This document shows positions 1,333 to 51,700 of a stretch of DNA of 64,000 nt, in pieces. The DNA comes from a virus. Position 1 is the first letter of the stretch; each line of letters starts with the position of its first letter. The notes below the pieces were generated by a model. It did no database searches. It saw only the letters and a program-made list of their open reading frames with translations, and had not been told where the DNA came from. The position numbers were made by a program, and so were the translations under genes. Location: the IMG/VR virus record IMGVR_UViG_3300045993_000757, positions 11,110 to 75,109 of that record. The stretch is one strand, 5' to 3'.

Positions 1333-1343
1333 AGGTTGCAGAG

Positions 1344-3059: not shown

Positions 3060-3104
3060 CCTCGCGCTCGTTGCATCGACAACCAGAAAGTCAGGAAAAT
3101 CTAA

Positions 3105-9276: not shown

Positions 9277-10820
9277 CCGAGATCCAGAAGGAGTTCTACG
9301 AGGACGGGCATCGGATGCGGATGGCCTACGGGGCTCGAGCGTCAGGGAAAACCTGGGCCGTCGAGCACACCGTGATGAAGCATTTGTGGCGCTTCAACGC
9401 CAGGGTAGCCGTCATCACAAAGACCACCCGCCAGGGATCGCTCGGGGTGTGGCCCGAACTGACCGGGATCATCTTCGACGAGTGGGTGGATTCGAAGGTC
9501 GGCAATTCGGTCGCTGACTTCGGCTGGTCCGAGAAGCCGCGGCGGGATCCGATCACCAAGATTCACCGGGCTGCGATTCACAATCGCCACGGTCGATCCA
9601 GTGAACTCGTGTTGTTCCCGATCGAGCACGCCAATGAGGCGCTGGAGAAACTGCTGTCCACCCAGTTTTCAGCCATTTGGATTTCAGAAGGACATCTCTA
9701 CGACGACCGATCCATCTTCGACACCGCCCTTGCCCAGCTTCGGCTTCCGAGCGTTCCATTCAAGGAAACGCTCCTCCTGGTAGACACCAATCCCCCGGAG
9801 ACGGGCACCAGCCATTTCCTGCACGACATTTTCTTCAAGGAGCGATGCCGCGAGGAGTGGCCCGAGTATTACACCCAGGAAACTATCGACGCTTTCAGGG
9901 AACGCCAGAAGCAGTTAGGAGTGTTCCGTTTCCCCATCGAATCCAACACGTTCCTCGATCCCGGGCTCAAGGCGCAGATCATTGCACAGTACGCGCATGA
10001 CCCATTTGCCTACCGACGATTTGTTCTGTCCGAGTGGATCGACGGCGTCGTCTCGGGCGTCTTTCAGAACGTCTTCTCTCGACAGCGGCACGTCATCGGG
10101 AATGCCGACGCGCGCGATCCTGAGGAGTGGCAGATCATCCCACCGGTCCAGACCGTGGACGCCGTCCTGGAGGGTGGTAATCCGCTCCTGATCTGCGGCT
10201 GGGATATCGGCGAGGTGAACCACGCCTGGGGGTGCCTGCAACCGGTCTACGTGGGGGATACGATCCACTTCCGGGTGCTCGACGAGCTGGTCTACACGAA
10301 GTCCGAGCTTTCCGTGGAGGAGTTCACGGCCCTGGTGATGGAGCGGATGAAGGCCGTGGAGACGATGGCGGGCTTCAAGGTCGAGTGGCGGCATTACTCT
10401 GACTCGTCTGCGTTTGAGTTCCGGGCGGCGATCCGCAGATCTGACCTCCCCCTGGACTCCGACATGACGGACGCGGCCTTGGTCATGGCCCGGTCAGGGG
10501 GCGAGATCGTGCTGGAAGGGAGCGCCCAGGTGAAGAAGCCGGGCTGGCAACGCCGCCGCGTCAACTTCCTGTCTCAACTCCTCCGCCAGGACAGGTTGGT
10601 CGTCTCGGCCAACTGCAAGATCGTCGTGGCGATGTTCTGCGGCTTGAGGAAGGCAGCCGAGAACTCCAAAAACGGCCCGTATCTAGACCCGGCCCAGATC
10701 GAGAAGCACCCGTTCGACGCCCTGTCCTACGCGATTTCCATGTATTCCCTTGAGGAGATCCTGGAGGGAAACAAGCCGTCTGAAGTAGCCACTCGAAGCC
10801 CCTCGATGATCATGGCCTGA
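9258..10820 (+). CDS. terL: Terminase large subunit
   Basis: Walker A YGARASGKT, Walker B-like IWISEG, motif DTNPP, nuclease GWDIG and HPFDALSY. Confidence 0.9.
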   Translation: MWTPRLTEIQKEFYEDGHRMRMAYGARASGKTWAVEHTVMKHLWRFNARVAVITKTTRQGSLGVWPELTGIIFDEWVDSKVGNSVADFGWSEKPRRDPITKIHRAAIHNRHGRSSELVLFPIEHANEALEKLLSTQFSAIWISEGHLYDDRSIFDTALAQLRLPSVPFKETLLLVDTNPPETGTSHFLHDIFFKERCREEWPEYYTQETIDAFRERQKQLGVFRFPIESNTFLDPGLKAQIIAQYAHDPFAYRRFVLSEWIDGVVSGVFQNVFSRQRHVIGNADARDPEEWQIIPPVQTVDAVLEGGNPLLICGWDIGEVNHAWGCLQPVYVGDTIHFRVLDELVYTKSELSVEEFTALVMERMKAVETMAGFKVEWRHYSDSSAFEFRAAIRRSDLPLDSDMTDAALVMARSGGEIVLEGSAQVKKPGWQRRRVNFLSQLLRQDRLVVSANCKIVVAMFCGLRKAAENSKNGPYLDPAQIEKHPFDALSYAISMYSLEEILEGNKPSEVATRSPSMIMA

Positions 10821-11066
10821 TCACATCCCCATCTTGCTCATCATCCCGCCGACTCCGGCCGGAGCAAGGGCCCCGAGTGCGGGGTTGGAGGAGCCGGGGA
10901 TGGGAGACGAGGATTCCGGGGATTCATTGGCATCTGACTCCTCAGGTGCCGTGGAGACTTCGACCGAACCATCGGGATTGGCCTTTCCCACGGTGATCAT
11001 GACTTGATCGCCTTCCATTTCGAGTCCGAGATTCTTGGCACAATCCGCCGGGAGAGTCGCTGTCAT
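10821..11066 (-). CDS. Small hypothetical protein
   Basis: 81-aa ORF exactly filling the gap, stop abutting the TerL stop, divergent from the capsid gene. Confidence 0.55.
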   Translation of the reverse strand: MTATLPADCAKNLGLEMEGDQVMITVGKANPDGSVEVSTAPEESDANESPESSSPIPGSSNPALGALAPAGVGGMMSKMGM

Positions 11067-34231: not shown

Positions 34232-34957
34232 ATGGCCGCAACATCCTGGACCACGCTGCCGTCCGCATCCAAGAACCCCACCGCCACCGGAGCCGCAGCG
34301 ATCCCCGACTACTTCGGCACCGCGCAGAACTCGCCGGAGCAGATCATCCGGCTGGCCAAGATCCCCGGGGCGGATCCTTCCATCTACCAGCAGTTCCAGG
34401 ATGCCAACACGCTGCGAGACACGATCAACACGCATCTCGGCACCTACTTCGATGCCCTGAGCAAATCCCAACCGTCCTACGACACCGCGGCGCAACAGGA
34501 CCAAACGGAGCTCTCGAACCTTTTCAGCCCCCAGGGATACCAGTCGGATCTGTCCGGTATTCGAGCGCGCCGGACAGCGGCGCTCTCCAATCTTGGCCAG
34601 TACCTCTTTGGAGACCTTCGCCGATCGCTGTCCATGGGACGGGTGGGCGGGGCTGGGGGCGCGGGTCTCTCGTCCTACCTTGCCAGAATGGCCGCGGGTG
34701 AGGCCGGGAAAATTCAAGCGAACCAACTTCTCGATTCCACGACACAGCAACGGACGGACCTCGCTTCCCTCATGGCAGCCCGGCAGGGATCCGTTGGGAA
34801 ATCATCGACGTTGCTCGATTCCAGTCTCAACCGACTGCTTTCTCCGATCGATGTCTCGGCGAAGGCGAACAGTGTCTACGCGAACGCCATCCAGCAGGCG
34901 ATTCAACAGGCGCTCTTGAACTCCATGATGGGCGTCGGAGCCCAGAAAACCCAATGA
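34232..34957 (+). CDS. Putative internal virion/DNA ejection protein
   Basis: Ala/Gln/Ser-rich helical protein in the ejection-gene position. Confidence 0.55.
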   Translation: MAATSWTTLPSASKNPTATGAAAIPDYFGTAQNSPEQIIRLAKIPGADPSIYQQFQDANTLRDTINTHLGTYFDALSKSQPSYDTAAQQDQTELSNLFSPQGYQSDLSGIRARRTAALSNLGQYLFGDLRRSLSMGRVGGAGGAGLSSYLARMAAGEAGKIQANQLLDSTTQQRTDLASLMAARQGSVGKSSTLLDSSLNRLLSPIDVSAKANSVYANAIQQAIQQALLNSMMGVGAQKTQ

Positions 34958-36792
34958 CCGCCATCGAAGCCATGCGCCTTTCCCTGGCGCACAATCTTGG
35001 GTCCGCGCGCAACACTCTCGCGCCCGGACTGGAACTTCCCGCTTACACGACGGGCATGGATCCCAACGTGTGGTCGTCGCGCATCCAGGCGATGAGTTTG
35101 TCCCGGCTTCAGCCGGCGGGGTTCGCGACGTCCCAGTACAAGTTCCAGAATACTCCGGGATCATTCGACTTCGGGGCCCCCACAGTTTCCAACGCGCTCA
35201 TGGTTCCCAAGACGGACCTCGAGAAACAGCAAGCTATCCAGTCGCTCATGTCTGTCATGGCTCCCGCTCCGAGATCCCCATCTGCCGGCGGAAGCTCCGC
35301 GGATTTTGGAAGTGGGACCTGGCTGTTCGGGAATGACTTCGGCGGACTTCAGTCGGCCTTCCTCGCCAGCGCAGCCCAGGACGAGGCGGCGCGAGCGGCC
35401 CGTGTTCGCGAGGCCCAGAACCAGGCTCAACTGAATCTCACGGCCCAAGCCCAGGCCCAGGATCGAGCGATGAGGCAGCAGGCGGCGCAGCAAGCCCTCA
35501 AGCAGTCTGACTTCCAGAACATGATGTCTCTGGCCGGGCTCTCCGAAACGTCTGGCCAGCACACGTTTGAGGATCAGCTCAACCTGATGAAGCTGACCGG
35601 AGCCAACATGGACGCCGAGCAGATGTCGAAGCTGGGCACGGACTCCATCATGGCCCAGTTCGACGCTGCCACGAAGCAGCAGAACGCCACGAGCGGGTTC
35701 AACGATCATGTCCAATCGATGGTCAACGCCTACAACGACGCCACCACCGGGGAGAAGATCGGTTTGACCATGCACAACGGGGTGTTGGTTCCATCGGTCT
35801 CCAAGGGAGACGCGGGCGGTACGAAGCTGATCAGCGACCTGTATTCCAGCCCAGCCTACGCGGCGATCACCGACGCCCAGAACGCGGTGACCAAGGCCCA
35901 GGCGGACTATGCCAAGCTCGCGTTCGTGAAGAAGGCCAGCACGGGGCTCATGCCATCCTCGATGCCCGCCAGTGGCTTACCGGTGAACCCGATCCTCCAG
36001 AACGCCCTCCAGCGGTACGGGGTGAATCTGGGTGGCGTGGCTCCGCGCACGGCAACGGCTGTGGCTTCCTCGGCCAGGAGTGGGGCCACCCCTTTCATCC
36101 TGCAAGATCAAGCGGCGGCTCGTGGGGCGGCGCAGGCGGCATGGAATGCCCAAGGTGTGCCCCCCGCGGCGTGGCAGGATGGCATTGGAGAGCTTCCATT
36201 TGGGGCAAATGTGGCAGCACCCGCAGCTACCCCGAGAACTTATGTTCAATACGTCCCCGGATCCGGAGATCAGATTGCTCCTTCATCCTATGCCACAGGG
36301 GTGACTGGTGCAGGCGGTGGGGGGGACATACGCCTTCCCAATTCCGGCGGATCAACTCCCGGTTCGATTCAGCTTTCGGACGGGACCGTGGTCACCGCCA
36401 CGCCATCTATTCCTTATTCTCCATATAGCCCGGGTTATTCCCCAGGAGTGTCTGGTGCTGGCGGAGGTGGGAACATTCAACTTCCAGTATCGTCATTGAA
36501 TGGGACTTCTGCGGCTTCCATAGAGTGGACGCTTCGACAGGCTTTGGGAGAGTTCCCGGGAACATCGTCTCAACTCGCGCCTATCTCTCCCGAACAGCGC
36601 GCCGCCGCCATCGCCGCCTACCTTCAGGCGGGCGGTGTCCCATGGTGGCCGGGTGGGATGCAGGGGGCCCCGTACCCCGGCCTTTCAAACTCCGCGATTC
36701 TTCCATCCATCGTTCGTCCCGCCGCGCCGATTTCAGGCAATCCGTTCCGATACATTCTTCCGCCCCCTTTGCCGACGTCATTCCGAGGCTGA
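34954..36792 (+). CDS. Putative internal virion/DNA ejection protein
   Basis: Ala/Gln-rich coiled coil followed by Pro/Gly-rich region; directly before giant protein. Confidence 0.55.
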   Translation: MTAIEAMRLSLAHNLGSARNTLAPGLELPAYTTGMDPNVWSSRIQAMSLSRLQPAGFATSQYKFQNTPGSFDFGAPTVSNALMVPKTDLEKQQAIQSLMSVMAPAPRSPSAGGSSADFGSGTWLFGNDFGGLQSAFLASAAQDEAARAARVREAQNQAQLNLTAQAQAQDRAMRQQAAQQALKQSDFQNMMSLAGLSETSGQHTFEDQLNLMKLTGANMDAEQMSKLGTDSIMAQFDAATKQQNATSGFNDHVQSMVNAYNDATTGEKIGLTMHNGVLVPSVSKGDAGGTKLISDLYSSPAYAAITDAQNAVTKAQADYAKLAFVKKASTGLMPSSMPASGLPVNPILQNALQRYGVNLGGVAPRTATAVASSARSGATPFILQDQAAARGAAQAAWNAQGVPPAAWQDGIGELPFGANVAAPAATPRTYVQYVPGSGDQIAPSSYATGVTGAGGGGDIRLPNSGGSTPGSIQLSDGTVVTATPSIPYSPYSPGYSPGVSGAGGGGNIQLPVSSLNGTSAASIEWTLRQALGEFPGTSSQLAPISPEQRAAAIAAYLQAGGVPWWPGGMQGAPYPGLSNSAILPSIVRPAAPISGNPFRYILPPPLPTSFRG

Positions 36793-36795: not shown

Positions 36796-39700
36796 ATGCC
36801 CAAATATCCGCTGACCTTGCCGAACGGACAGTCGTTCGACATCGACTCGCCGAACGAGCTGTCCCAGTCCCAGCTCGCCGAAGCCCAGGGCCAGCTCATG
36901 GCCCAGTTTGGACAGGCCCAGCCCGACCCGACTCCGGTCGCCGAACCGTCGTTGTCCAATAACGCCTTCGATCCGATCGGTGCGGTGCGCGATGCCATTG
37001 GACAGGAACTGCCTCCGCCAGAGTTCGGCGCCATGGATGTCCCTGGGGCGGCAGTTCGATCCACCATGGGTCAACTCGGTCAGGGGATGTTCAAGATCGG
37101 GCTTGGAGCCATGGGTCTGACTACGGGCCCATTGGTTGATGTGCTGACGGGAAACACACCCTTCCAGCAGAACCCAAGCTGGGAAACCCTGGGAGAAACG
37201 CTCAATCCCGCGAAGTCCTACGCCCGGTTTAAGCGCGGCGCCATGGCGCAGAATATAAATGACCTAGCGCGTTCTTCGGTCCCCGTCTGGGAAAGGCAGA
37301 ACGATCCTTCCATCGCCCAGCCCACAGGGTTCACGAAGTCAGCCATCGATTTCACGGGGGGCGTTGCTTCCTCCGTCATCATGTCCCTTCCCGCCATGGT
37401 CACCGGGATCCCCGGGCTCATCGGGATGTCCATGGCCACGTTCGATCCGGCCTTTGAGGAGGCCCAGTCGAAGGGCGCAGGCGACACAAAAGCTTTCGCG
37501 CACGCCGTCCTTTCCACGGCGTTCGAAGCGGGATCCGAATACGTCGGATCGGCCTGGGCCAAGACCGCCCGGATGATGGAAACGATGCCGTACCTACCGC
37601 CGACCGTGCGGAAGTACCTGTTCCAGGCAGAGCGAGGCCCCGTGGAGGATGCCGCCAAGGAAGCTGCCAGGAGTTTCTGGGGGACACTCGTTGGCACAGC
37701 CAGCAGGAAGGACGGGATCCACCTCGGCACCGCGACGATGGAAGGGCTGGAGGAAGTCTTCAGCACCGTGGCCCAGCGCATGAGCGCGGCCATGCTCTAC
37801 GACCCGACCCAGATCACGAACATCGGCGACCTGATGATGGACGCCGGGATGTCGTTCCTGGGCGGTGCCGCGGCGGGTGTGGCCTTCACCCCGCTGGAGC
37901 GCCGTGTCGCGCGCCAGAAGGTCGGCGAGGCGATGCGGAGCGGTGTCTTCGAGCAGTACCGCACGGCCCTGGAAGCCGCCAAGAAGGACGGCGCGTACCG
38001 ACCTGAGGACCAGAAGGTCGTCAACGAGGCGGTCACCGGCCGTCGCCTGATGGAGCTTGGGGCTCTCTGGGGCAACACCGACATGGTGGCCAAGGGGAAG
38101 GAACAGCTCGCCGCCGCCACCACGCCCGAAATGGCAGCCGCCACGGAGGCGGAGGTGAAGAAGGCCGCGGAAATGTTCCACGCCGTCCAGACCCCGGAAG
38201 GAGCGGCGACGGCTCACAAGCTGGCGGTCGATCAGTTCGGTGCGGACAGTCCCCAGGCGAAGAAGATGGCCGAGCTAGTGAATCAGGCCAACGAGCACCG
38301 GCTGGACATCGCCCGTGCCCAGGCCGTGCAAACCTCCGGCCCCGGCATGAAGTCGGAGGAGTGGGCCAAAGTCGTCACCCAGGAAGGTCTTTCGCCTGAC
38401 CGCGTCGAGCTGCACGCCAGCCAGGGATTCCGCGACAACGAGACGGGTCTTCCCACCGAAAATCCCAAGGATTCCCAGGGCCGTCCCAATCAGGAGCAGG
38501 AAGGCTACGTCGATCCGCAGACCGGCAAGATCCACATTTACCAGGGGTCCATCCTGGGCGACATCAACGCCGGCCGGGGATCCCGCCGCGTCCGCCAGCG
38601 TGAGCACTTCCGCCAGGTGTTGCGGGAGGAGGCCGCGCACACGGCGCTTCAAACGCCCCTGGGCCGGAGCCGCCTCAACGCCTACGTCGAGCACCTTAAG
38701 GCGAACGACTCGAAGGCCTACCAGGCGATCGTGGACACGCTGGCAAGGCAAGGATACCACCCCGACATCATCCCCGAGGAGTACGTCGCCAAGCTCTACC
38801 GGCAGCAGTCCTGGTTCCAGCAGAAGGTCGATGACTTCATGCTGGCCCTGCACCGTTGGACCGGCATCGGGAAGCTGAATCACGTTCGCGCCGGACGCTT
38901 GCTGATCCGCAGTCTCGTGGAGCATTCCCGGCAGGGGAACCTTCGCGGGAACGCCGGCGCTTTCCAGCCTGCCAACGCCGCCGCCGATGTCCGCCAGCAG
39001 GAGTCGCGGCTGGACATGGCCAGGATCCGCGCCCTGAACACGGAGGAGGCCAAGGTCATCGCGTCCGGACACGCCGCGATACTGACCCAGCCCCAGCTAG
39101 AGCAGGCGATCCGCGACCTGACGACGCGCTTGGAACTCATGAACCGCCAGGGGATCGGCGGCATGGTCAAGCTGGAGACGGAGCGCGTCCTGAAAGCGGC
39201 CAAGGACGAGTTTGTGGCCCGCGAGAACGTCCGGCGTCAGGCCATCCTGAACCAAGCGACCGCGCCCGTGCAGCCGCCGACGCCCAACACGCCCCAGGGC
39301 GGCACGGCACCTTTCGTTCCGGTCATCGACCAGCAACCCCCGACACCACCCCCCAATGCCCCTGATCAACAGCAGCAGCAAACAGGCAGTCAGCCAGAAC
39401 ATCCGAACGGAAATGAAGGCGGGCAAGCCCCAGAAGCAGGCAATAGCAATAGCCCTGGCAGTCCAGCGGAGAGCGGAGCAGAAGCGCCGAATCCGGAAGA
39501 AAGCAAGGTAGCCAGCTACGTTCCGCCGGAGAACCCCGGCCACATTGCTGCCGACCTTTCGACCAAGGTTCAGCAGGGGGATTTGACGCGCGACGAAGGA
39601 ACCGCGCTGTCGATCAAGTTTGGGGTCCAGGGCGAGTTCGATCAGTTCATGGCCCTGATCGACAAGGTCGCCGCCCGCGAGGCTTCTGGAGAGGCTCAGG

Positions 39701-42700
39701 CGGAACGCGAGGCGCGCAAGGCCAAGATCGACAACATCGTCTCCCGGCTGCTCGTGGGCGATGAGGTGGACGGTGGCATTCTGGAGTCCATCGAACCCAG
39801 GGCGGAAGACGACCACTGGTTCGTGGTCCGTCACCCCGGAGGAACGACATCCGCATCCAACGTCCCGCCGATCATCGGCAAGATGTTCGACCCGGCCTGG
39901 GTCCAGTCCATTGAGTCCCGGAAGCTCACGCGCGAGAAGGTGCTGAAGGCGGAGGAGCTGAAGAAGAAGATCAAGGGCAAGGAGAAGCCCCAGGATGCTC
40001 GGGAACAGGCGGCGGCAGAGGCTCGTGCCAAGAAGGAGGCGTTCGAGCGCGCCGAGGCTGAACGCAAGGCCAAGGAAAAGGCGGACCAGGATGCGGCCCG
40101 CAACGAGTTCGAGTCGGCTTTCCAGCAGGCGAAGGCCCTGGCTCCTGGCGACAAGGTTGGAAAACGAGTCGTCCAATCCAACAACACCGAGACCACGGAC
40201 ATCCAGTTCGAGGGCGAGAACACCCCCGAGGACTACGAGAACGTCGCCGTCTTCATCATGGACGGAAACGACGTGGTGAAGGCTTCAACGCCACCGCCGG
40301 CCGCAGGCAAGACGTTCAAGGTGGGCGACCGAGTTCAGTGGATGGACGGGAAGATCACAAGGACTGGCGTCGTCCGTGAGCAAACCGCCATCGGGGTATC
40401 AGTCAACGACGATGACTCGGGCAGGAACTACCTGCTGGCTTCGAGTGACTTGACTGAACTCAGTAAGCCCGTTTCGGACCAACCCCAAGCCCCCGCGATC
40501 ATCGAGGCGTGGAAGAAGGGGAAGCGAGAACTGGCCCAGCAACTCGCCGATCGACTGCCCGAACCCGGTGACACATGGGCGTTCCGGACTTCCGACACCG
40601 GAAACCTGGCTGGGTATGGTGCCGGGGATTCCACCTTCACCCGAGACCTGACGGTGCGTGGCAAGCCTCTGTGGCAATGGATCAACGAGGCCCAGGCAGA
40701 TACCCTTCCGAAACCCGGATCCAACGCCCAGGAGAACAAGCCGGCCGCAGGGATCACCGCGGACAACCTGCACAAGCAGAACCTCCGGATGTTCACGGGC
40801 ATCCTGAAGCCCATCATCGAACGTGTCCGAGGAATCTTCGATCGCCTTGAACGGGGGAAGAAAGTCTCCCAAGATGACCATTCGTTCCTCAGTCGGTACA
40901 GGGCTTTTGCCACCGAGAAAGTTAGGTCTCTGAATGAGGGGTTTGGGGATGTCCCCGCGGAGAGCATCGCTCAGAAGTACACCGATGACTTCGAGGGCAT
41001 TGCCTTGGCCCGAGATTACACCAAGGCCCAACTGGAGGTGGAAAAGAGGCACCTCACCAAGTTTGGGCAACTGTTTCCGACGGGATCCGAAACAGGGAAC
41101 ATCATCTCAGGACTTCTGGGCCGCGTCATGGAAGCGATCAATCGCCATGATGGTGTCCCGATTCCTCGCCTCGCATCCAAGATTCCCAAACGTCCTATCC
41201 GCAAGCCCTCGACCCGCGAGCGTGCCCCCGACCTGATCGACCTCCTGATCGACACCGTGGGGAAGATCGACCCCAAGCTGATCAAGGAGGCCAATCCAGA
41301 CTTCAAGCCCACGGGCGCGGCCCGCCTGCTGTTCAGCCCCAAGGGAACTCCAGCCGACCAGGCCATGCACGCCGTGGTGGGACAGATGGGCGTCACGGCC
41401 GACATGAGCATCGACCAGTTCGCCGAGGCGATAACGGCGGCTGCCAATGGCAGGAAGGCCACACGCAAGGGCTGGGCGGCGGAAGGGGCCCAAAACGACG
41501 CGGATGCCAAGCGCGCCCTGGCGTTCCATGCGTTCCTGGATAAAGAACGCCCGTCAGGTCTTAGCGTCTCCGAGTTGAAGATGGGCGACAGCTTCACGGT
41601 GGACGGAGATCCTTTCTCCGTCATCGGGGTGGAGTACGGCGAGGATGGAGGGCCTTTCTCGGTTACCCTGGACGGCGGGAAGAAGTGGGGGACCCAGGTT
41701 GTCGATGGGAAGAAACCAGTCACGGTTGATGACGGAAGCTTCGCGGGCGTGAACGGCCCCATTGAGCCGGAGACCAGCAAGCTCCCGTCCGAAATCGCGG
41801 ACGAGATTCGTCGAGTGGTTGGATTCATCCAGGAGGTCAGGAACTACCTCAATTCCCAGCTTCAGTGGAAAGACAATCACAGCCGCTTTGTCGTGGAGGA
41901 ATACCTCAAGGACAACGCTCAGGCCATCGAAGCCGCTCAGAAGACCATTCAGGAATTCAGAGACGTTGCTCCGACTCACAACATCGACGCCGAGCTCGTC
42001 ATCGAGGAACTCGGCGGAGTTCCTGACATCACGCTTCCCCCTGAAAAACCTGCGGGCATCCCAGGCTTCTTCGACGCCATCGAGTCCGACGAGGACCGGA
42101 TCGCCCGCGAGCGCAACGAGGCCGAGCAACGCCGCGCCAAGGCCGACGCCGACAAGCTCCGCGACCTGGCCAACAAGCCGCTCAAGGGAACTGCTGGCGA
42201 CCTGGGGCAGGGGGCCCTGTTTGCGGAACCCGGCGACCAGGACTTGTTCGCCCCGCCGCCGGCCGACGTTCAGCCCAAGCGCAAGGCCATGGACGCGATC
42301 CAGGCCAAGGTGGACGCCCAGGACGCCACCAAGCGCGCCAAGATCGAGGAGCTGAAGAAGCGGCTGAAGCCGAACATGGGCGGAGAAGACATCACGCCGT
42401 TCTCCCTCAAGGAGCTTTCTCCCCAGACCAAGAACGACCTGATCGAACTGTCGGGGCTCTACCTGAGCAGCGACATCGTCTCCTTCGCCGAGTTCTCAAC
42501 CAAGCTCATCGACGACTTCGGGGACAGCGTTCGTCCCTGGCTCCAATTCGCCTATGAAAGCTCTCGGTTCTCTCCTGGTGCGACTTACAAGGGATCAATG
42601 GACCCGGCTGATTGGGTCGAACAACTCGCCAAAAAATATGACTCAGGTGCCACTCCGGATCTGGAATCAGATCGCTTCCGAACAACAGGACAACCTGGAC

Positions 42701-45700
42701 CCGATCGCGGTCCAACTGTTCAGCCTGAAAACCTCGGACCAGCTCAACCTGGTGATCGACCTGTGGCACCAGGAGATTCGCAAGCTGACACCGGAACCCC
42801 TGGTGGCGTCAGCGATCGTGGCGATTCTACCACTGATGCGCGCCCAGCGGGCGGTGAACGCCTTCCTGAGCCAGCGGCCAGCCCTGTCGTGGAACGTCCG
42901 GCAAGCCATCCCGGAACTCAACGGCCTGGACGAAGCGGTGGAACTGGGCGTGCTCGAGTATCGGCTGCGGCGCAATCAGACCTTGGATCTCCGGAAGCTC
43001 CTGTCGTCGCCCCAGACGTGGCAACTCCTCCGCCCGATTTTGGAGCGTACCCCAGCGACAACCCCGTCGCCGACCAAGCCGACGCCAACGCCCGATCCTA
43101 CCCCTGGCTCTCCGCCGATCCCGGCAACATAGAGAGCACGCTTCCGATGCTGTTCCCCAGCCAGCGGAAGAACGTCTTCCTGGCGGAGCGGCGGTTCGCG
43201 GAGACCCCGGTGGCAGCCACGCACGCCTCGGGCACCGGCCTGGGCGATCCCAAGCGCGGGATCCTGTTCACCGATGGCACCGGCACCGGCAAGACCTACT
43301 CCGGGGCAGGCATCGTCAAACGCTTCCTCATGCAGGGGAAGACGCGGATCCTCATCGCGGTCCCGAACGCCAACATCATCGAGGCGTGGAAGTCGGCGAT
43401 GAAGGACTTGGAGATCCCGCACTTCGTCCTTCCCGACACCAGCACCGCCGCCAAGGGCGTCACGCTGACCACCCAGGCGAACCTCCGAAACAACGCCGAG
43501 CTCGCCAAGCAGGACTTCGACCTGGTGGTCATCGACGAGTCTCACAACCTCCTGTCCAACGAGGCGGGTGAGGCGAACGCGGGTCTTCGGTCCTTCCGGA
43601 TGGTGGCCAACCACCCCGACAGCGTGGAGCGAAAGGCCACGAATGCCATCATCGGGCCTGCCCCGGTCCAGGCGGACTACGCAGGCGGAGGTGATTTCGC
43701 GGCTGCCCTTCACCAGTGGGACCAAAAGCGCATCGACAACATGGCGAAGATCAGCGCCGAGGTGAAGCGGATCAACGAACTGAACACCAAGGCGCTCTTT
43801 CTTTCAGCTACGCCATTCGCCTACCACACCTCGCTCATCATGGGCGACGGGTTCCTCTACTCCCTGCCCGACGACAGTCAGCGAACCGGATACAATCAGC
43901 CCAAGGGATTCGACCGGTTCCTCGCCGAGAACCTGGGATGGCGGATGCGAACTGGGAAGCTGAACAAGCCCAGCGCAAACGTGGACACTTCGGTCATGGA
44001 GATCCAACTCCACGACCTGTTCGCCAAGCGCGGGGCCATGCACGGCGTCTCGCTCGATGTTCCCCAGGACTACAGCCGGGAGTTCGTCCTGGTCCGACCG
44101 GCCGCAGCGCAGAAACTCGATGATGGGTTCTCGTTCTTCCGTGGCGGCGAGTCGTACCAGCAGCAGTACCCGATCCTCAATAAGGTCTTCAACGAGCTCT
44201 GGGACTACAACCACGTCGCCCAACTCCTCGAAGCATTGAAGATGGACTCTGCCATCGAACGCATCCGCCAGCACGTTGCCATGGGCAGGAAGGTCATCCT
44301 GCTCCACAGCTACCTGAAGGCGAAGATCCATGCCCACCCCTTCCGGTTCGAGACCTACCCGCCGGAATTCCTGATGGCTTTCAACGGGGCGGATCTCAAG
44401 GCTGAGATGGACCGTTTCCGGAACGATCATGCCGAGTGGGCCAACATCGTCATGCCCGACTCTGAGCTTTCGTTGGAGAAGATCCGCCGCGAGTTCGGAG
44501 ACTCCGTGGTCTTCAACAACGGCAAGGAGGCCCCCCGAAGTCGTGTCGAGGCGGTGATCGACTTCAACCGCGACGGTGGCGGCGTGAATCTCCTGGTCGG
44601 TCAGCTTCAGGCGACCAAGGAAGGCGTCTCGCTCCACGACAAGAGCGGGAAGCACCAGCGCGTCATGATGATGGTCGCGCTGCCCATCCGACCCACCGAT
44701 GCCATCCAGGCCGAGGGTCGCGGTTACCGGATCGGAGTGAAGACCGACGCCATCAACGAGTACATCGTGCTCCACACGATGATGGAGCGGTTCGCCTTCG
44801 CCTCGAAGATCAACGAGCGCGCGGACACCGTGGAAACCCTGGCCCTGGGATCGGACAGTCGAAACCTTCGCGACCGATTCCGCGACGGCTACCTCAATGC
44901 CATCGACGCGGATCCCAACGACCAGCAGGGCAAGGGAAGCAAGGAGGCCGACCGCCGCGCCGAGACGATGTCGGACTTCGACCGGGCCGTGTCCTTCTAC
45001 TTCGCCCGCACGAAGAAGAACTCCCGGACCAAGAGCGCCGAGGGGCTGGACTACTACCCCACGCCGGAGCCGCTGGGGCTCAAGATGGTGGAATGGGCTG
45101 ACCCAAGCGCCGGGGACGCCCTGCTGGAGCCTTCCGCCGGCCACGGGGCCATCGGCCAGTGGTTCCCCAACATCGGCCAGCACGCCTACCTGGAACCCTC
45201 CGCCGAGCTTCGCAGCGAGCTGGGAATCAAGGTGAAGGCGGGGACCGTCTACTCGACGACGTTCGAGGACTACCACATCACGAACAAGTTCGACGAGATC
45301 GTGATGAACCCGCCGTTTGGTCGGGCGGGGGCCACGGCGTTCGCGCACCTCGCCAAAGCTTTCCGACATCTGGTAATGGGCGGGCGTATCGTCGCCCTGG
45401 TTCCCGATGGGGCCAACACGAACGACAAGATCGTCGAACTCCTAAGGGCCGGGAATGATCCCACGGGGCACTATGACGGCCGAGTGTTGCGGGCGGACAT
45501 ATCGCTTCCTTCGTCCGTGTTTGAACGGGCCGGGACCAGCGTTCGGACTCGCCTGCTGATCTTCGATACGCCGACCTATTCCGATCTCCACTCCGGCCAC
45601 CGGATCGGAGAAGGGCTTGAGAACCTGTTCCCGCCCACGTTCACGACCAAGATCGAGGCCAACACCATCCAGGAGTTGTTCGACCAGATCCGCGACCTGG

Positions 45701-48700
45701 ACGTTCCGGCGCGAATCCGGAAGCCCAAGCCCGCCCCAAGCAATCCGCTGACCACACGGGACGCCATCATCCAGACGACATCCCAGGGCCCCGGCGTCGT
45801 TCCCACCCGCCAGCAGTCCACCACACCCCAGCTTCCTCCGTTGTTCAAGCTGGGTCAGACGACGCACGCGAAGAAGGGGATCCAGTTGTTCGTCGCCACG
45901 CTGACCAAGAGCTTGAGCGATGCGAACTTCTCCGTAGTCAACCGGATCGCCAAGAAGCACGACGGATACTACTCGGGGTACAACAAGGCCAACGCGATCC
46001 CAGGATTCCAGTTCGACGCCGCGGATCAACGAGACGATTTCGTCGCCGAGGTTGAGCGGGCACTCCGACCTCCCGACGAATCCACTCCGACCTACTCCCT
46101 GAAGGCGCGCGATCCGTTTGAGGTCAACGACATCACGCGCACCCGCGGGGCCATCATGGCTTCCATCGGAGTGCCGCACGTCGCGGATGCCATGACGATG
46201 ACCCCCGACGAGTTCGCCGCCGGGAAACATCCGACTGTCCTGGGGTTCTCTGGCAAGTCTCTATGGCAAGCCATCAACAGCGGGGATCCCACCCTTTCGG
46301 CGTTGCTCCGTTCGCCCGCCTATTCGCTCAAGGTCCGTCCGGTGCAGTCGGACCTGTTCGACCGGGAGACGACGCGGAGCATCGCCCAAGCCTACACCTC
46401 GGCGGGAACGTCGCTGCCGAACAACCGCCCCGCCCTGTTCTCGGTGATCGACAACGGGGACGGGTGGAAGGCGCAGAGTCGAAACATCGACTTCGGGGCC
46501 GGGAAGTCCTTGTGGATGGACGACGCCCTCAAGAGCCGGGGCGTGGAGAACCTTCGGTACGATCCATTCAACGAGGCCTCCGCCGTCAATGAGGCCACCG
46601 TCGATTCAGCTCTCCGCGCCCCGGCCGACACCTTGACCGTCGCCAACGTGCTCAACGTGGTCGCGCCGGAGGCTGCGTTGGATGAGACCATCCGTCAAAC
46701 CGCCCGCCTGCTGAAGCCGGACGGCAAGGCGTACTTCTGGGTCCACTTCGAGAACGGCAAGAAGTCCGGCGTTCCCCGCGGTCGCCCCGACTCCTGGCAA
46801 TGGCACCATAAGGCCGAGTGGTACGTCCCACACCTGAGCCGCTTCTACGGAAAGGTCGAGACCATCGGCCAGAACATGATCGTGGCCTCGCAGCCGATCC
46901 CCGTGGTGGGCGAATGGTCGCCGTCCGCGGAAGGGCCCACGTTCAGCCTCAAGCCGCGCGCCTACGACCTCACGCCGAACGGTGGGAATCCCATGGTGCC
47001 GCGCATCGGCTACCTCACCGGGAAGCACAGCGCCAAGATCCTCGCTCGCGCCCAGGCCCGCGGGGACATCGGGGCCCTGATTACGCCGACATCGTCGCAC
47101 TCATTGGACACGGCCCGGTCCTACCCGTTCTACGCCGTGGACAATGGCGTGTTCGGTAAGGCCGGGTTCAACGAGCCCAAGTTCAACGCCCTCCTGAACA
47201 AGATCCAACCGGGCGATCCCAAGGTCTTGTTCGTCGTGGCCCCCGATGTCCTGGCCCACCTTCCCAATGGCCAGGTGGTCGGGGATGCCGCGGCGACCAT
47301 CGAGCGGTTCAAGGATTGGGGCCCTCGGATCCGGGAGCGCGGTCTTCCCGTGGCTTTCGTGGCCCAGGACGGGCTGGAGGATCGGTTCAACGACATCCCA
47401 TGGGACGGTATGGACGTGCTGTTCATCGGCGGGTCCACGGGCTGGAAGCTGGGCGAGTTCGCCGATCCGGAGCGCCGGCGGCGGTGGGAGTATGTGATGG
47501 GCGAGGCGCACAACCGCGGCATCCCGATTCACATGGGGAGGGTGAACTCCAACGAGCGCCTGACGGGCCACGCCGTGGACATGGCTGCGTCCACCGCGGA
47601 CGGGACCCTCCTGGCGTTCGGGGAGGACATCAACTTGCCCAGGCTCGAATCATGGCTGGATCAGTTGAACCACGGGGGGCTGTCTTACGCGGCTCGGAAC
47701 ATGACGGAGTTGGGAAGATTGCCCACGAGGCGGGAGATTATCGACTTGGCCAGTGATCGGAATCTTGCCTATGAAACCCTCGGGGCATTTGAGCCCGCCC
47801 TGGACGAGATCAACGCCACGCGCAACGAACTTGGGCTGCCCCCAATCGCACCCCGCCAGTTCGATCCGGGCCAAGCTGAGTTCGGTTTCTCGCTGAAAAA
47901 GCCAGTCCGGATGTTCCGCAGCTACGCCGAGTTGGAAACGGGGGCTCTCCAGTTCGAGTCCTGGCGCGACTGGTACTCGGCCGACAAGGCGAACATAGAC
48001 TCTATGTTCGGTAAGGATGCCCCGCTGTTCGCACAGGTTCTCGCTGCCACGTCCATCCAGACTGAGGTTCCCGATAATGTCGGTCGAGCCTTGCGCGCCT
48101 ACATTGAGATGATTCAGGGAGCGCCATTCACTGGTCAGATCCCATCGGCTAGGGTCAATTTGGAGCGAATCCGGGATGGAGAGTCGATCCGTGGCCCCAA
48201 GATAGAACCTTTTGCTCGGGCCATCATGGGCGATGAAAGCGCGATCGCTGTTGACAGGCACGTCATCCGCGCGATCTTCGGCGAGGACGCGGTCGCTACT
48301 CCGGCACTCATAAGAAAGGCACAAGATGTCATTCGCAAGATTGCGGCGAAACACGGGTGGACTCCTCGGCAAACCCAGGCCGCAGTCTGGGCTTGGAAAA
48401 TCAATCTCAACGGGAAAACCCCCCAACGATACCTCGACTCCCTCACTCCCGATCGCTTCGCTAGCACAATCCGTGGATCAGGAGTTGAAGGACTCGTTCG
48501 ATCGCGCACGAATTTTGGACAGGGAACTCAAGCAGGCGTTGGGACCGGGGCGGCAGACACCGGATCCGGAGTTCAAACGGGAAATGAAACCCCCGCTTAC
48601 AGCCTAAAGACCCCGCCCGATCACCGGCCGCTCGCGGAGGACATCAACGCTTTCCGCACCGAGTTCCCCACGGCCCCGCCGATCGTCGTCAACCAGGACG

Positions 48701-51700
48701 ATGCCGCGCGCGGGGCCCGGTTCGAGAATGGCGAGATCGTGGTCGCTGAGACCATGATGCCCAGCAGCCGCACCGGTCGCCGGGCGGAACTCCTGGCGGC
48801 TCTCTCAGACGCCGGTCGGCTGAACATTCCCCAGGGATTCTGGGATCGAAGCTGGAAGGGTCTTGTCGCGGCTTCCCCCGTCCTCATCGAGGAGACACGC
48901 AAGTCCATTGGCGGGAACATCGACACCCAAGAAGGCCGCAATGCCATCCTGGCTGAGTTGGTGAAGCGGACATCAAAGTCCTCCGCCCCCGTGGGATTCG
49001 TGCGTTCGGCCCTGGCGTTCTTCCGTGGCCTCGACCAGACGAAGACCCCGGCCTACATCATCGCGGCCATGCAGCGGACGCTGGACCGGGTGACCGACCA
49101 GTTCACGCCACACCAGGCGGGGCCGCAGGGCGAGGCGGACTTCGGACCCACCGACACGCTCCACCAGTACATCGGCGGTCTCAACCGCGACGGATCACAG
49201 CGGGCGAGTGGCGTTCAGGAACAGGTCTTCGCCGACCAACACTTCGCCCTTTGGAACTCCTTCGAGCCTGAGCTTTCCCGCATGGAGGCGCGGCTCTCCG
49301 ATCTTCAGACGGGGCTCCTGGAGGACCACCAGTTCGAGAGTGTCCGCCAGCGGATGCAGCAGATCGCCGACACGGTCCTGGCAACGAACATTGCGAACCA
49401 CCGGCGCGCGGCCCTGAACATCGCCGCCGATGACTTCATCGACCAAGTCCAGGAGGTGAATCCTGACCTCCTCACCCGCGAGGACATCGAGAACCACAGC
49501 ATCTATCTCAACGAGGTGAAGGCCCGGCGAGCCATGTCGCTCATGCAGAACATCGAGCGGAACAAGGCGACTCGCGATTACCTGACGGACAACCTGCCCC
49601 AGTACCCGATTCAAACCCTGAACCGCCGCATCTCCCGGCAGCAGATCCGCCTGTCTGACATCGAGCAGAACCACCCCGAAATGTACGCTCGTGCCTCCGA
49701 GTTGAAGTCGCGGGTGGAAGGCGATCCCGCGGCCCGCGCCGCCGCCGATGCCATTTCCGACCCGGCCATCCAGGAGTGGGTCGAGGTCATCCATCAGATC
49801 CGCGAGAGCGGGACCCAGCCGCGCGCCCTGGCAGCCATGCCGGTGGCCATCCAGAATTCCGCCGCCGTCGCCGCCGGGGTGTTCCAGTACAAGGCCAGGG
49901 CCATGCGGCGGGAGCTGGGGGATCGCCTGGTTCGAACGACCGACACCGCCCTTCGCGCCCTCAACAAGCTCGTCGAGGAACGGCGCAATTCCCGGCAGAA
50001 GGAAGGTCAGATCGAAGTCGCCATGGTGGAGATGATCCAGGCGGCACGCGGGGACGCCGGGGCCAGCGGTGGCCTCTACACCCTGGAGGAAGCCAAGCGG
50101 ATGCGGGACATCGGGGACCGCGCCATCGCCCGGTTTGCTCGATTCCTGGGGGCTTCAGATCCCGGAACGCTGCCGGCTGAGCTTCGGGATGCCTTCATCG
50201 AGGACAACCTGATGTCCATCGGGATCGACCCGGCGACCCTGAGCGGGCCCAACTCGTTCGATCTCGACCGGATCGCCACCGATGCCGGGATCTCGCGGGA
50301 AGCCTTCCTTCAGATCATGGAACTGGCGCGCACCTCGCGCCCCTTCCAGAACATGGTGGTCGCCCTGGCCGACGAGGCCGACGAGCGCGCTGAGACCAGC
50401 ATCCTCAACGCCATCCAGCGGCTCCAACGGGTCCGCAACGAAGTCCTGAGCCGCCCCAGGGATCCGGTGGACACCACCGGCCTGACCCCCAAGGAGGCGC
50501 GCATCGCCATCGCCCGATCCGAACGTGCCATCATCCGGCAGGCGAACCAGGAGGCGCTGCTCTCCGCGGCCCCGTTCCTGCGCTCCCTGAAGCAGCAGAC
50601 CCTCGAACTCAAGCAGTCGAACCGGTCGATGGACACGCAGATCGAGCGGTTGGAACGCGAGCTTCAGACGATCCAGAACCTCTCCGACATGGCCAACGCC
50701 GTGGACGGAGCGGCCCACGAGCTGGCCCCCGACAACTTCGGGGTGGCCGAGATGGTCTACCAGACTTCGGACGGCGTCTTCATGGCGGAGTTCCTGACGG
50801 CGGAAGGAACCCAGCCCGGCGTCCGGGTCAGCCCTGGCGAGGAGTATTCGGCCGAGAAGATCATGGAGATCATCCTCTATCGGGACGCGGCCCTGCGCGC
50901 CATCGCTGCCAACGTGAACCCGCCGGAGATCACGCGCGGCTTGGAAGTCGCCGTGGACATGGTCCTCCCGCTGATCGACGCCAACTCGACCCCCGGATCC
51001 ATCGGAAAGACCCTGTCCCCGAACGGCCTGTCCGAACAGTGGACGAAGTATCCCATGGGCGTTCGAGCCGCGATGCCCCGCTTGATCCCCGGCATTTCCG
51101 GCCGGCGACTGGCGGAATCCATGGCCACCTACGCCCGTGTCGGAAGCAAGGTCACCGCCATCCTCAACAAGTACCACGCCCGCCGCGTCCAGTTGCTCAA
51201 GGCGGCGATGGACTCGATGAACCTGTCGCCCACGGACGAACTGGCGCGGTCCTCGTTCCGGCAGGTTTACAGCGAGGTGGCCCATCGCCTGCGCGAACAC
51301 GGATCCAACGTGGCTCCTGGCGATCAGACGTTCTCCGGAAATCACGGATCCATCGTGACCCCGGAGCTGATCACCCTCCTCCGGTACGACCGTGAAATCT
51401 TCAGGGCCGTCCAGGACATCGTGGAAAGCCTGCCCTACGGCGGCATCCGCGAGTCCATCCCCGGCATGGATGTCCGCCTCATTCGCCCCTCGGCCGAGAC
51501 CGGCGACGTGGGCCTGGCCCGGTCAGTGAACAAGGACTTCGAAGTCCCCCTGGCTCGCGCCTATTCCGCCGCAGTCACCCTGGCGACGAACCAGCAGAAG
51601 GTCACCGGACAGAACGTGATCCCCGACATCACCGCGTTCTGGGACATGAATCCGCACCACATCCTGTTCCACATCCTGGACGCTGGGCGGAACGACCTGG

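Follow-up and report, generated by a model that had tools for sequence, protein, structure and literature searches.

A giant polyvalent-type phage protein carrying helicase, methylase, TGT/DpdA-like and glycosylase-fold modules

Five domains within a single giant ORF

We analysed a window of 64,000 nucleotides (the whole stretch of DNA under study, positions 11,110 to 75,109 of the IMG/VR record IMGVR_UViG_3300045993_000757), in which a preliminary description had marked a five-domain DNA-modification toolkit at 43130-48597. All five domains were found where it had placed them, with the quoted motifs present and in one shared frame. Its domain limits held except for the start, where 43129 and not 43130 is in frame, a shift of one base. 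What it had left out is that the domains are internal modules of one 5,932-aa ORF, in the order SF2 helicase, N6-adenine DNA methylase, class-I methylase, TGT/DpdA-like barrel and HhH-GPD glycosylase-fold domain. The features are:

9258-10820, plus strand: TerL; tail-like genes lie upstream of the giant ORF
36796..54594, plus strand: giant ORF, 5,932 aa (ORF list and translation); the marked stretch is its middle third
42400..46092, plus strand: helicase-methylase module, aa 1869-3099 (ResIII and PHROG matches)
about 43213-44745, plus strand: SF2 helicase core (Pfam ResIII, E 2.4e-10, 41 bits, above cut-off)
about 45004-45612, plus strand: N6-adenine methylase with NPPF (DNA-methyltransferase PHROGs, E 3.7e-31 and 8.6e-18)
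46093..46320, plus strand: 76-aa module with a YSLK junction on either side (aa 3100 and 3176)
46321..46941, plus strand: second methylase module, aa 3176-3382, putative class-I SAM-dependent methyltransferase fold (sub-threshold)
46942..47886, plus strand: TGT/DpdA-like module, aa 3383-3697, barrel core 47017-47703; predicted active-site residues D3449 (DNGVF; 47140-47142), F3453, D3484 (APD; 47245-47247), Q3524, G3545-G3546 and D3602 (DGT; 47599-47601)
47887..48597, plus strand: DUF7178 module, aa 3698-3934 (Pfam DUF7178, E 1.2e-11), with the invariant pair K3802 (GPK; 48199-48201) and D3820 (VDRH; 48253-48255) and a disordered linker from about 48478
48326..48607, plus strand, +1 frame: candidate overprinted ORF, 93 codons, directly behind the glycosylase-like domain
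48598..54591, plus strand: C-terminal module, 1,998 aa, common to the closest relatives
42400..48609, plus strand: six [YF]SLK junction motifs, one per module boundary, at 42400, 46093, 46321, 46942, 47887 and 48598 (aa 1869, 3100, 3176, 3383, 3698 and 3935)

The giant ORF takes up 24% of the complete 75.1-kb (75,109-bp) genome of an uncultured freshwater phage and is the last in a long run of plus-strand genes, among them the large terminase and tail-like genes. Its product contains no cysteine (0.84% Cys in the other ORFs; P about 2e-22), and 51/76 DUF7178-bearing proteins of 1,500 aa or more are cysteine-free too. The relative P0128 (5,906 aa) has most modules in common with it, in conserved order.

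A helicase-methylase module analogous to P1 DarB

The helicase-methylase module opens with a disordered Gly/Pro-rich leader and has an uncharacterised tail after the methylase. Its helicase, with DGTGTGKT as Walker A and DESH as Walker B, belongs to SF2 as first proposed; the accompanying label "strawberry-notch-like" is weak (AAA_34, E 0.004, below its cut-off). The whole module is matched by phrog_10691 (E 5e-247), and phages 45A6, Parlo, Skulduggery and ZX1 have giant proteins that show 36-38% identity to it.

The link to P1 DarB that had been drawn from the window stands as far as the pairing of helicase and methylase is concerned, as both are single large phage proteins that combine SF2 helicase motifs with the N6-adenine methylase motifs xPTPxx, LEPSAGxG and NPPFG. 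It did not extend to family membership: pairwise similarity is not significant (best BLASTP E 0.038, motif level only) and the order is reversed, with the methylase at residues 91-184 and then the helicase at 844-1517 in P1, whereas the helicase comes first here. Judged by sequence, the relation to DarB is one of analogy and not of membership.

Behind this pair, the 76-aa module had no match in Pfam. The second methylase matched Methyltransf_23 just below the 27-bit cut-off (E 2e-5, 24.8 bits) and phrog_14016 with E 2.8e-4. The (D/N)PP(Y/F) DNA-methylase motif is absent from this module, which is also present in the relatives P0128, P0130 and L007.

A stripped-down TGT/DpdA-like barrel

The proposed resemblance of the next module to TGT and DpdA was borne out by modelling. 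The AF2 model is a TIM barrel (pLDDT 91, pTM 0.88), its best structural matches are TGT-family proteins, and active-site positions are conserved. Foldseek placed a bacterial TGT on top (E 1e-4), and VIA gave Z scores of 13.9 for Cap10, 12.6 for ArcTGT, 12.1 for TGT and 11.2 for DpdA, with the caveat that TIM barrels of a generic kind, such as pyruvate kinase and PdxJ, match this domain no less well than TGTs do. In hhalign, its profile matched canonical phage DpdA with 94.5% probability (E 7.6e-8); the catalytic and base-binding positions of DpdA, the roles of which have been described (PMC10164549), are conserved in the alignment, with the DpdA nucleophile Asp placed 3 residues ahead of the invariant Asp of this family. 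By predicted role, the residues retained in the barrel are the acid/base Asp, the Phe that stacks on the base, the Asp and Gln that read it, the two glycines of the Gly-Gly loop and the nucleophilic Asp. It is matched by phrog_15826 (E 2.9e-43) and has 629 stand-alone homologues, and among named Atlas clusters DUF6610 and DpdA lie nearest to it. HMMER-level searches returned no TGT family, and the Pfam TGT, DpdA and DUF6610 models all miss.

With known DpdA and TGT enzymes (S. Montevideo DpdA, 7UI4; phage DpdA1-4), the module shares the TIM barrel and the ordered pattern D(x3)F ... D ... Q/H ... GG ... D, and the spacings are close to those of bacterial DpdA (D95/F99, D130, H181, G206-207, D256). 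Actinophage records label its stand-alone relatives "DpdA-like". It differs in being only about 210 aa long and in missing the zinc subdomain; no zinc site was found in it, as it has no Cys. Moreover, its family is often found without any 7-deazaguanine pathway, and here it forms part of a giant protein, an arrangement limited to the closest relatives. On profile and model evidence, the module is a remote DpdA homologue, a predicted stripped-down TGT/DpdA-like barrel.

Its substrate is less clear-cut. TGTs are ancestrally tRNA enzymes, and Cap10, which gave the highest structural score, belongs to the TGT family but has been remodelled so that it binds the deazaguanylated N-terminus of a protein (bioRxiv 10.1101/2025.04.06.647259). 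The barrel might then act as a counter-defence not on DNA but on the queuosine position of host tRNA or on the deazaguanine-protein conjugates that host immunity systems form (type IV CBASS, QatABCD). We consider this very improbable, as the lead of Cap10 over other TGTs and generic barrels lies within noise, profile and language-model evidence favours DpdA, and there is no RNA-binding module.

For DNA, the specific version suggested earlier is that after injection the module swaps guanines in the phage's own entering DNA for preQ0 or preQ1 from the host queuosine pathway, as a second protective mark beside methylation. This would agree with the DpdA profile homology and nearest clusters (DUF6610 being DpdA4), with the retention of all base-binding positions, among them the Gly-Gly loop, which in TGTs holds the 7-substituent, and with the fusion beside DNA-acting modules; also, a phage DpdA expressed alone in E. 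coli puts host preQ0 into DNA (PMC6884629). Several observations speak against it. The absence of 7-deazaguanine synthesis genes, noted before for the window, holds for the entire 75,109-bp genome, in which family searches found no TGT, QueC, QueD, FolE or radical-SAM families and the preQ0 pathway genes (FolE, QueD, QueE, QueC) are missing. The closest cultured relatives (42-44% identity) are lone genes of phages that infect Mycobacterium smegmatis, a host without the preQ0 pathway, and because that host makes no 7-deazaguanine, the substrate may be something else. DNA of the mycobacteriophage Orion, which has a lone DpdA (not shown to be in this family), is without 7-deazaguanine (PMC6884629). 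Finally, Arthrobacter phage Sonali has a small protein of this type in addition to a canonical DpdA and the full pathway, which suggests different jobs for the two. Overall, we regard such a deazaguanine mark as unlikely.

A DUF7178 module with an HhH-GPD fold

The DUF7178 family search gave 1,305 representative matches. The HhH fold anticipated for this module was recovered from its AF2 model (pLDDT 90.9): each of the 23 VIA matches with Z of 5 or more belongs to the HhH-GPD superfamily (next match 3.9), with Ogg2 3n0u best (Z 12.0, 167 aligned residues) and Mag1, MutYX, EndoIII and QNG1 at Z 7-9. At the HMMER level, sequence searches matched no HhH-GPD Pfam family. The two-lobed helical fold is common to HhH-GPD glycosylases (Ogg2 Tm1821, endonuclease III, MutY, AlkA/Mag, AGOG) and to QNG1/DUF2419, and the family's invariant K105 and D123 align with K120 and D138 of endonuclease III, a hairpin Lys followed by an Asp 18 residues on. 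According to the model, then, the module has an HhH-GPD DNA-glycosylase fold. It differs from the known glycosylases in having no iron-sulfur cluster and no Cys, in carrying its own invariant W-Y, S and N positions, and in residing mostly in phage proteins of 2,000-6,000 aa. The retained Lys/Asp pair is that of bifunctional glycosylase/lyases. QNG1/DUF2419 is a related queuine-salvage enzyme.

The candidate ORF in the +1 frame has a counterpart in the relative L007, at the equivalent position and with a shared SFxRA[KR][IV]LDxE core. Over the 1.6 kb compared, nucleotide and synonymous-site conservation peaks at its start region. This raises the possibility that the glycosylase-like module, perhaps together with the barrel, is a putative weapon against host or competitor DNA (removing bases, nicking abasic sites, and shutting down or degrading the resident genome) that the small +1-frame partner would restrain in the producer. 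An invariant Lys/Asp pair is typical of glycosylase/lyases, DUF7178 is common in many unrelated giant proteins with or without other modules, the ORF sits right behind DUF7178 with its conserved start and shared core, and overprinted genes do exist in the giant ORF (39356-39511, phrog_2423, E 1.8e-20). However, a frame-wise similarity test gave no clear signal (z of 3.3, 5.5 and 4.3 for the three frames), alternative-frame ORFs of such length are common in this GC-rich gene, and this one has no PHROG match. We hold the weapon reading only tentatively, as unlikely.

Junction motifs and terminal regions

Against the six [YF]SLK motifs seen, 0.07 were expected from composition. The variant [YF]S[LRTM]K occurs at equivalent boundaries of P0128, P0129, P0130 and L007, and motifs of this type are absent from other DUF7178 giants, being specific to a small clade. 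The sites may be processing sites; cleavage there is a conjecture, because no peptidase domain (no HExxH) was found in the giant protein. Neither the N- nor the C-terminal 2,000 aa have a recognisable function in Pfam or PHROG or a match among GenBank phages. In the C-terminal module, aa 5219-5237 form a weak hydrophobic segment, another stretch is rich in Gly and the tail is strongly basic; its segments C1-C3 are conserved in P0128-P0130 and P0211. As a weak lead, its nearest Atlas clusters carry LPD39, LPD38 and LPD1 ("large polyvalent protein" domains).

Delivery and possible role

The idea that polyvalent proteins are delivered at invasion and cut into modules has been put forward before (PMC5512222). 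We consider it probable (roughly 60%) that the marked stretch is the enzymatic core of a single giant "polyvalent" phage protein, which the virion most likely carries and releases into the cell along with its DNA. Its modules may first be cut at [YF]SLK, and its likely role is to counter restriction early on or to take over the host. That it is delivered with the virion and acts at entry we infer from gene position and analogy. The homologous helicase-methylase module of Parlo and ZX1 lies in 3,764-3,867-aa proteins between the tail genes and the lysis cassette, that of Pseudomonas phages H66 and Epa33 is labelled "structural protein", and an analogous 4,515-aa DarB-like protein was detected by mass spectrometry in purified phage JC1 virions (PMC9144972). 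Virion association is an analogy here, since no portal or capsid genes could be named in this phage, which is uncultured.

If the protein enters along with the DNA, its modules possibly separated first at the junctions, the helicase-methylase pair would track along the entering DNA and methylate it, as proposed for DarB. The barrel would break the glycosidic bond of a guanine-type base via a covalent Asp intermediate and insert another base, for which the phage would depend on the host, as it makes none itself. The glycosylase-like module would excise a base and may nick the abasic site via a Lys Schiff base.

The enzymes might instead act late in the previous infection, on progeny DNA before or during packaging. 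The protein would then be only a passenger or structural component in the capsid, and nothing would happen on entry. The gene does lie within the late structural block, and PHROG, Pfam and NCBIfam showed no other DNA methylase or base-modifying enzyme in the part of the window's larger ORFs that was screened. Against this, the absence of Cys, together with terminal regions that are hydrophobic and basic, would suit exit from the capsid, and P1 DarB protects DNA in cis on arrival (PMC5512222). Late action strikes us as rather improbable.

Entry into the cell with the DNA is also proposed for the polyvalent proteins that phages and conjugative elements encode (Iyer et al. 2017, PMC5512222), a class to which the giant "DarB-like" virion proteins known from Bcep22-like, Parlo-like and Lastavirus podophages belong. 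Like them, the protein is very large and strings together many unrelated effector domains, has an adenine-methylase and SF2-helicase pair, and has its gene as the last of the virion module. It differs in that no embedded peptidase was found and in [YF]SLK motifs limited to its small clade. That survey names neither a DNA glycosylase nor a TGT-type domain (0 occurrences each of "glycosylase" and "queuine"). A TGT-like module fused into a giant protein of this kind appears to be undescribed, and there appears to be no prior description of TGT/DpdA-like and glycosylase-fold modules in such giant phage proteins. Contigs from other pond, wetland and river metagenomes matched the marked stretch with no differences.

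A single open reading frame encodes the enzymatic modules

The enzymatic stretch at 43130-48597 falls within one open reading frame (36796-54594, plus strand, identified from the ORF list and its translation), which encodes a protein of 5,932 residues. As the modules share this reading frame, the possibility of five separate genes was ruled out. The virus record is 75,109 bp long, carries direct terminal repeats and is rated complete, so 24% of the genome is taken up by this one gene, which closes a long plus-strand block with the large terminase and tail-like proteins upstream.

Features of the plus-strand block and modules of the giant protein
9258-10820, +, large terminase TerL (phrog_2, E = 7e-20)
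13527-15887, +, tail-like protein of 786 aa with a calcineurin-like phosphoesterase domain (Metallophos, E = 8.5e-11) and Ig-like domains
36796-54594, +, giant ORF
42400-46092, +, SF2 helicase followed by N6-adenine methylase
46321-46941, +, methylase 2
46942-47886, +, TGT/DpdA-like barrel (domain 3)
47887-48597, +, DUF7178 module (domain 4)

Scans against PHROG, Pfam and NCBIfam gave no family match for most other genes of the window, and no portal, capsid or lysis gene could be identified among the larger ORFs covered by these scans. The N- and C-terminal 2,000 residues of the giant protein had no Pfam, PHROG, NCBIfam or GenBank phage match. The phage is uncultured and metagenomes are its sole source, with near-identical DNA present in pond, wetland and river samples. 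Contigs from four other metagenome runs showed zero differences and no polymorphisms when compared with 46900-48700, and the window sequence is therefore considered sound. A chance ORF or an assembly artefact was ruled out by the existence of a relative of similar length and by the identical sequence in independent samples.

The motifs quoted in the preliminary description were all found, and all are in frame (its start coordinate was off by one base). Its first call, a strawberry-notch-like SF2 helicase, stands as far as the helicase is concerned, which scores over the Pfam ResIII threshold (E = 2.4e-10), while the strawberry-notch label is a weak one (AAA_34, E = 0.004). The first methylase has an NPPF motif and matches phage DNA-methyltransferase families in PHROG (E = 3.7e-31). 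The entire helicase-methylase module matches phrog_10691 (E = 5e-247), and segments of giant proteins from Ruegeria phage 45A6, Serratia phage Parlo, Pseudomonas phage Skulduggery and Klebsiella phage ZX1 share 36-38% identity with it. Methylase 2 is a class-I SAM methyltransferase (Methyltransf_23, E = 2e-5, slightly below the Pfam cut-off). Membership in the family of P1 DarB, the anti-restriction protein with which the module had been compared, was ruled out: the best BLASTP match reached an E value of 0.038 (motif level only) and the domain order is opposite, as the methylase of P1 DarB is N-terminal to its SF2 helicase whereas here the helicase comes before the methylase. The two proteins have only motifs in common. 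P1 was absent among the tblastn matches listed.

Domain 3 is a TIM barrel with a DpdA-like profile

Positions 47017-47703 match phrog_15826 (E = 2.9e-43), and 629 homologues of domain 3 were found (proteins of 125-401 aa), nearly all of them stand-alone proteins of ~200-230 aa without a Pfam domain. An AlphaFold2 model made from 35 aligned homologues (pLDDT 91, pTM 0.88) is a barrel of alternating strands and helices, i.e., a (beta/alpha)8 fold, which agrees with the TIM barrel initially proposed. The best Foldseek matches of this model are bacterial tRNA-guanine transglycosylases (E = 1e-4). With the structure aligner VIA, it matched Cap10, the TGT-like protein of type IV CBASS (Z 13.9), archaeosine TGT (ArcTGT, Z 12.6), bacterial TGT (Z 12.1), QTRT2 (Z 11.6) and DpdA (Z 11.2). 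As unrelated barrels (pyruvate kinase, PdxJ) also reach Z 12-13 and so tie with the TGTs, the fold by itself indicates a TIM barrel with a leaning towards TGT.

At the level of HMMER, both the single sequence and the profile gave only chance-level matches to PDB chains and Pfam. The assignment of domain 3 to the TGT/DpdA group beyond its fold is instead based on GenBank annotations, language-model neighbours and a profile alignment. Stand-alone proteins of Mycobacterium and Arthrobacter phages, 39-44% identical to domain 3, carry the GenBank label "DpdA-like tRNA-guanine transglycosylase". The closest named clusters in a language-model search were DUF6610 (0.90), the family given the name DpdA4 (PMC10516641), and DpdA (0.89). 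Finally, hhalign aligned the domain 3 profile to one built from 40 canonical phage DpdAs at a probability of 94.5% (E = 7.6e-8, 144 columns). A stand-alone homologue of 213 aa from Erythrobacter phage ZS04 (8914-9555 of that locus) is annotated "DarB-like antirestriction protein", a name probably transferred from giant proteins that contain domain 3.

In the family alignment D42, D77, G138-G139 and D195 (model numbering) are invariant, and F46 and Q117 are conserved. The hhalign alignment pairs D-N-G-x-F of the family (D42) with D-S-G-A-F of phage DpdA, A-P-D (D77) with L-D, the Q of A-Q-D-G with a His, and G-G with G-G, while the nucleophile Asp of DpdA falls 3 residues ahead of the invariant D195 (D-G-T), which we consider alignment uncertainty. 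In Salmonella DpdA, Asp95 acts as acid/base, Phe99 stacks, Asp130 and His181 read the base, Gly206-207 follow and Asp256 is the nucleophile (PMC10164549). As positions 42, 46, 77, 117, 138/139 and 195 of domain 3 follow the same order at similar distances, its active site looks intact at the sequence level. tRNA-guanine transglycosylases have a Zn-binding Cys3-His subdomain, whereas domain 3 has no cysteine and its family alignment no invariant one; a canonical Zn-containing TGT was thus ruled out.

Domain 3 does not co-occur with a 7-deazaguanine supply in this phage

No 7-deazaguanine synthesis genes had been visible in the window, and this absence extends to the entire genome: no canonical TGT, QueC, QueD or FolE, nor any radical-SAM enzyme (QueE-type), was found in the 75,109 bp. 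Domain 3 and a 7-deazaguanine supply therefore do not occur together here. "Singleton" DpdAs without a clear function are already known; the DNA of mycobacteriophage Orion, which encodes such a protein, is free of 7-deazaguanine, and a preQ0 pathway is absent from Mycobacterium (PMC6884629). The Orion DpdA may lie outside the domain 3 family. In Phegasus, a phage of M. smegmatis, a relative of domain 3 stands alone among replication genes. Arthrobacter phage Sonali (locus L002) has both a small DpdA-like protein (gp81, 6995-7612) and a canonical DpdA (gp87, 9982-10872), the latter adjoining QueC, QueD, QueE and FolE. The presence of both proteins in Sonali argues that they are not redundant.

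An ordinary role for domain 3, the insertion of a 7-deazaguanine supplied by the host, was considered unlikely because the genome lacks the pathway enzymes, because relatives such as that of Phegasus are singleton-like, and because of the Sonali pair. Targets other than DNA, whether tRNA or deazaguanylated proteins, were given lower odds again.

DUF7178 has the fold of the HhH-GPD superfamily

Positions 47887-48597 match Pfam DUF7178 (E = 1.2e-11), a name for which no mention was found in the literature searched. An exhaustive search yielded 1,305 representative proteins, most of which bear the domain within polypeptides of 2,000-6,000 aa. The AlphaFold2 model, made from 34 short homologues, is all-helical and two-lobed (pLDDT 90.9). 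Every VIA match with Z of at least 5 belongs to the HhH-GPD superfamily (23/23), and the next match has Z 3.9. Ogg2 Tm1821 leads these matches (Z 12.0, 167 residues); the others include Mag1, MutYX, the queuine-salvage enzyme QNG1, endonuclease III, MagIII, OGG1, AlkA, MutY, AGOG, ROS1 and a phage thymidine-hypermodification enzyme. Foldseek placed the same families on top with weak E values (0.05 and above). The HhH fold suggested for domain 4 in the preliminary description is thus borne out by the model.

Searches with domain 4 against PDB sequences found nothing, and DUF7178 did not match the curated HhH-GPD models of Pfam (1/35 members touches Ogg-HhH, at E = 0.14). In HhH-GPD glycosylases the catalytic Asp follows the hairpin at a distance of some 18-20 residues, and bifunctional enzymes have a Lys ahead of it. 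Six positions are invariant in an alignment of 35 DUF7178 sequences, including K105 (G-P-K) and D123 (V-D-R-H), which are 18 residues apart. When the profile was compared with E. coli endonuclease III, hhalign gave a single local match, in which K105 and D123 fall on K120 and D138, the Schiff-base lysine and the catalytic aspartate of that enzyme. As the probability of this match is low (6.9%, E = 0.005), the case for a Lys/Asp pair in DUF7178 rests on the fold plus the motif. Read as an HhH-GPD fold with a Lys/Asp pair, DUF7178, a domain of more than a thousand representative proteins, becomes an enzyme candidate open to testing.

For co-occurrence of the modules, segments of the giant protein were searched against the best 150 of the 1,305 DUF7178 proteins. 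Methylase 2, the TGT-like module, DUF7178 and the C-terminal modules were found together in the nearest giant relatives only (P0128, 5,906 aa, and P0130), with P0129 having the same combination without methylase 2. The viral contig IMGVR_UViG_3300033075_001467 (L007) likewise carries methylase 2 together with the TGT-like module and DUF7178. Beyond the nearest relatives, DUF7178 is housed in quite different giants.

The giant protein is a candidate for delivery with the virion

At least five enzymatic modules lie in one ORF, downstream of TerL and tail-like genes and on the same strand, as in polyvalent proteins. The paper describing this concept and the methylase-helicase pair makes no mention of glycosylases or queuine-type enzymes (Iyer et al, 2017; PMC5512222). 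Homologous proteins of 3,764-3,867 aa in Parlo and ZX1 are placed between tail genes and the lysis cassette, and homologues of the helicase-methylase module in phages H66 and Epa33 are annotated "structural protein". In addition, an analogous DarB-like protein of 4,515 aa, JC1 gp69, was detected in JC1 virions by mass spectrometry (PMC9144972). The case for delivery is one of analogy, drawn from the position in the structural block, the placement in Parlo and ZX1, the H66 and Epa33 annotations and the JC1 virion protein. Our overall reading, mechanisms included, has a probability of roughly 60%: the giant protein would be a chain of nucleic-acid-modifying enzymes that arrives with the virion and works early in infection, within minutes. 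Alternatively, the enzymes could act late in the previous infection, to which we assign only small odds.

If delivered with the virion, the helicase-methylase pair would most likely translocate along the entering DNA and methylate it. The barrel would most likely detach a guanine-type base by cleaving its glycosidic bond via a covalent Asp intermediate, and the DUF7178 module would most likely remove a base and may also cut the abasic site. These two modules may either shield the phage's own DNA or be directed at host nucleic acid. As far as fold and catalytic residues are concerned, the models and alignments support the base exchange or excision that had been proposed.

The literature already contains giant polyvalent proteins as well as methylase-helicase pairs of the DarB type. 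Modules with a barrel for guanine exchange or with a DNA-glycosylase fold are not described for them in the literature searched. What this analysis adds is the TGT-like fusion, together with the junction motif and the absence of cysteine. The fusion also gives a functional hint for the widespread orphan small "DpdA-like" proteins, often found in phages without a 7-deazaguanine source: as a homologue is fused to a putatively injected giant, their job may be one that is useful at entry.

Cysteine is absent from all 5,932 residues of the giant protein (P ~2e-22 at the phage's own Cys frequency). The products of the two genes just upstream (34232-34957 and 34954-36792) likewise lack it, and the two fibre-like giants (15884-21472 and 21477-25904) each contain a single cysteine. 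Among DUF7178 proteins of at least 1,500 aa, 51/76 lack cysteine and 71/76 contain 0.1% or less. This would fit proteins that are threaded from the capsid and across the periplasm, and the complete lack of cysteine offers a handle on adaptation for export through the tail.

The motif [YF]SLK occurs 6 times in the giant protein (0.07 expected), at every module boundary (aa 1869, 3100, 3176, 3383, 3698 and 3935). Relatives have [YF]S[LRTM]K at the equivalent boundaries, and other DUF7178 giants are missing it. Judging from this pattern, the motifs are likely processing sites, and they give a handle on whether the giants are cut into separate enzymes. Neither a peptidase nor a peptidase motif such as HExxH turned up in the giant protein. 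In L007, the methylase-2/TGT/DUF7178 block of the giant ORF (1-8436) is flanked by two modules that contain an HNHPSG motif and look RadC/JAB-like by eye; these are not in the window's giant protein. Should they prove to be peptidases, processing at the FS[LRT]K junctions of that phage could be their task.

Overprinted reading frames within the giant gene

Three ORFs in the +1 frame of the giant ORF were considered.

ORFs overlapping the giant ORF in its +1 frame
39356-39511, +, 51-codon ORF matching phrog_2423 over its full length (E = 1.8e-20)
42554-43132, +, 192-codon ORF over the disordered Gly/Pro-rich leader, just 5' of the helicase
48326-48607, +, candidate 93-codon ORF directly behind the DUF7178 glycosylase-like domain

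The phrog_2423 match means that at least one real gene is nested in another frame of the giant ORF. The ORF at 42554-43132 stops at the start of the enzymatic stretch and had no PHROG match. The ORF at 48326-48607 is considered a candidate overprinted gene. It has a plausible ribosome-binding site (GAAAGG, 6 nt 5' of the ATG), and a +1 ORF of L007 (6356-6676) occupies the same place and has a core motif in common with it. In a 1.6 kb comparison with L007, the one relative locus that served as comparison DNA, the most conserved nucleotide stretch, synonymous sites included, is the start region of this ORF. Frame-wise similarity exceeds its own shuffles in all three frames, as the DNA of the window and that of L007 are homologous, and alternative-frame ORFs of this kind are common in this GC-rich gene.

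In another reading, which we regard as possible but doubtful, the DUF7178 module and perhaps the barrel would be a weapon against the host that is paired with a partner protein. A more far-reaching version of virion delivery, improbable as a whole, is that the phage delivers a minimal transglycosylase without zinc, along with an enzyme of the glycosylase/lyase type, with its DNA, that the barrel is a fifth DpdA-like lineage, and that DUF7178 is an injected glycosylase checked by the overprinted partner. If true, the injected anti-defence armoury would comprise base exchange and excision besides methylation. The fifth DpdA-like lineage would be widespread, with proteins of ~200 aa and hundreds of metagenomic members, and the barrel would do something other than make 7-deazaguanine genomes; the puzzling "singleton DpdA" genes would thereby be explained. 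DUF7178 would then be a common injected DNA glycosylase restrained by an overprinted partner gene.

Synonymous sites are also highly conserved between the window and L007 at 46954-47030, the first ~25 codons past the FSLK junction of the TGT-like module, where 10/10 identical residues use the same codon. This could reflect a recombination joint or an additional constraint.
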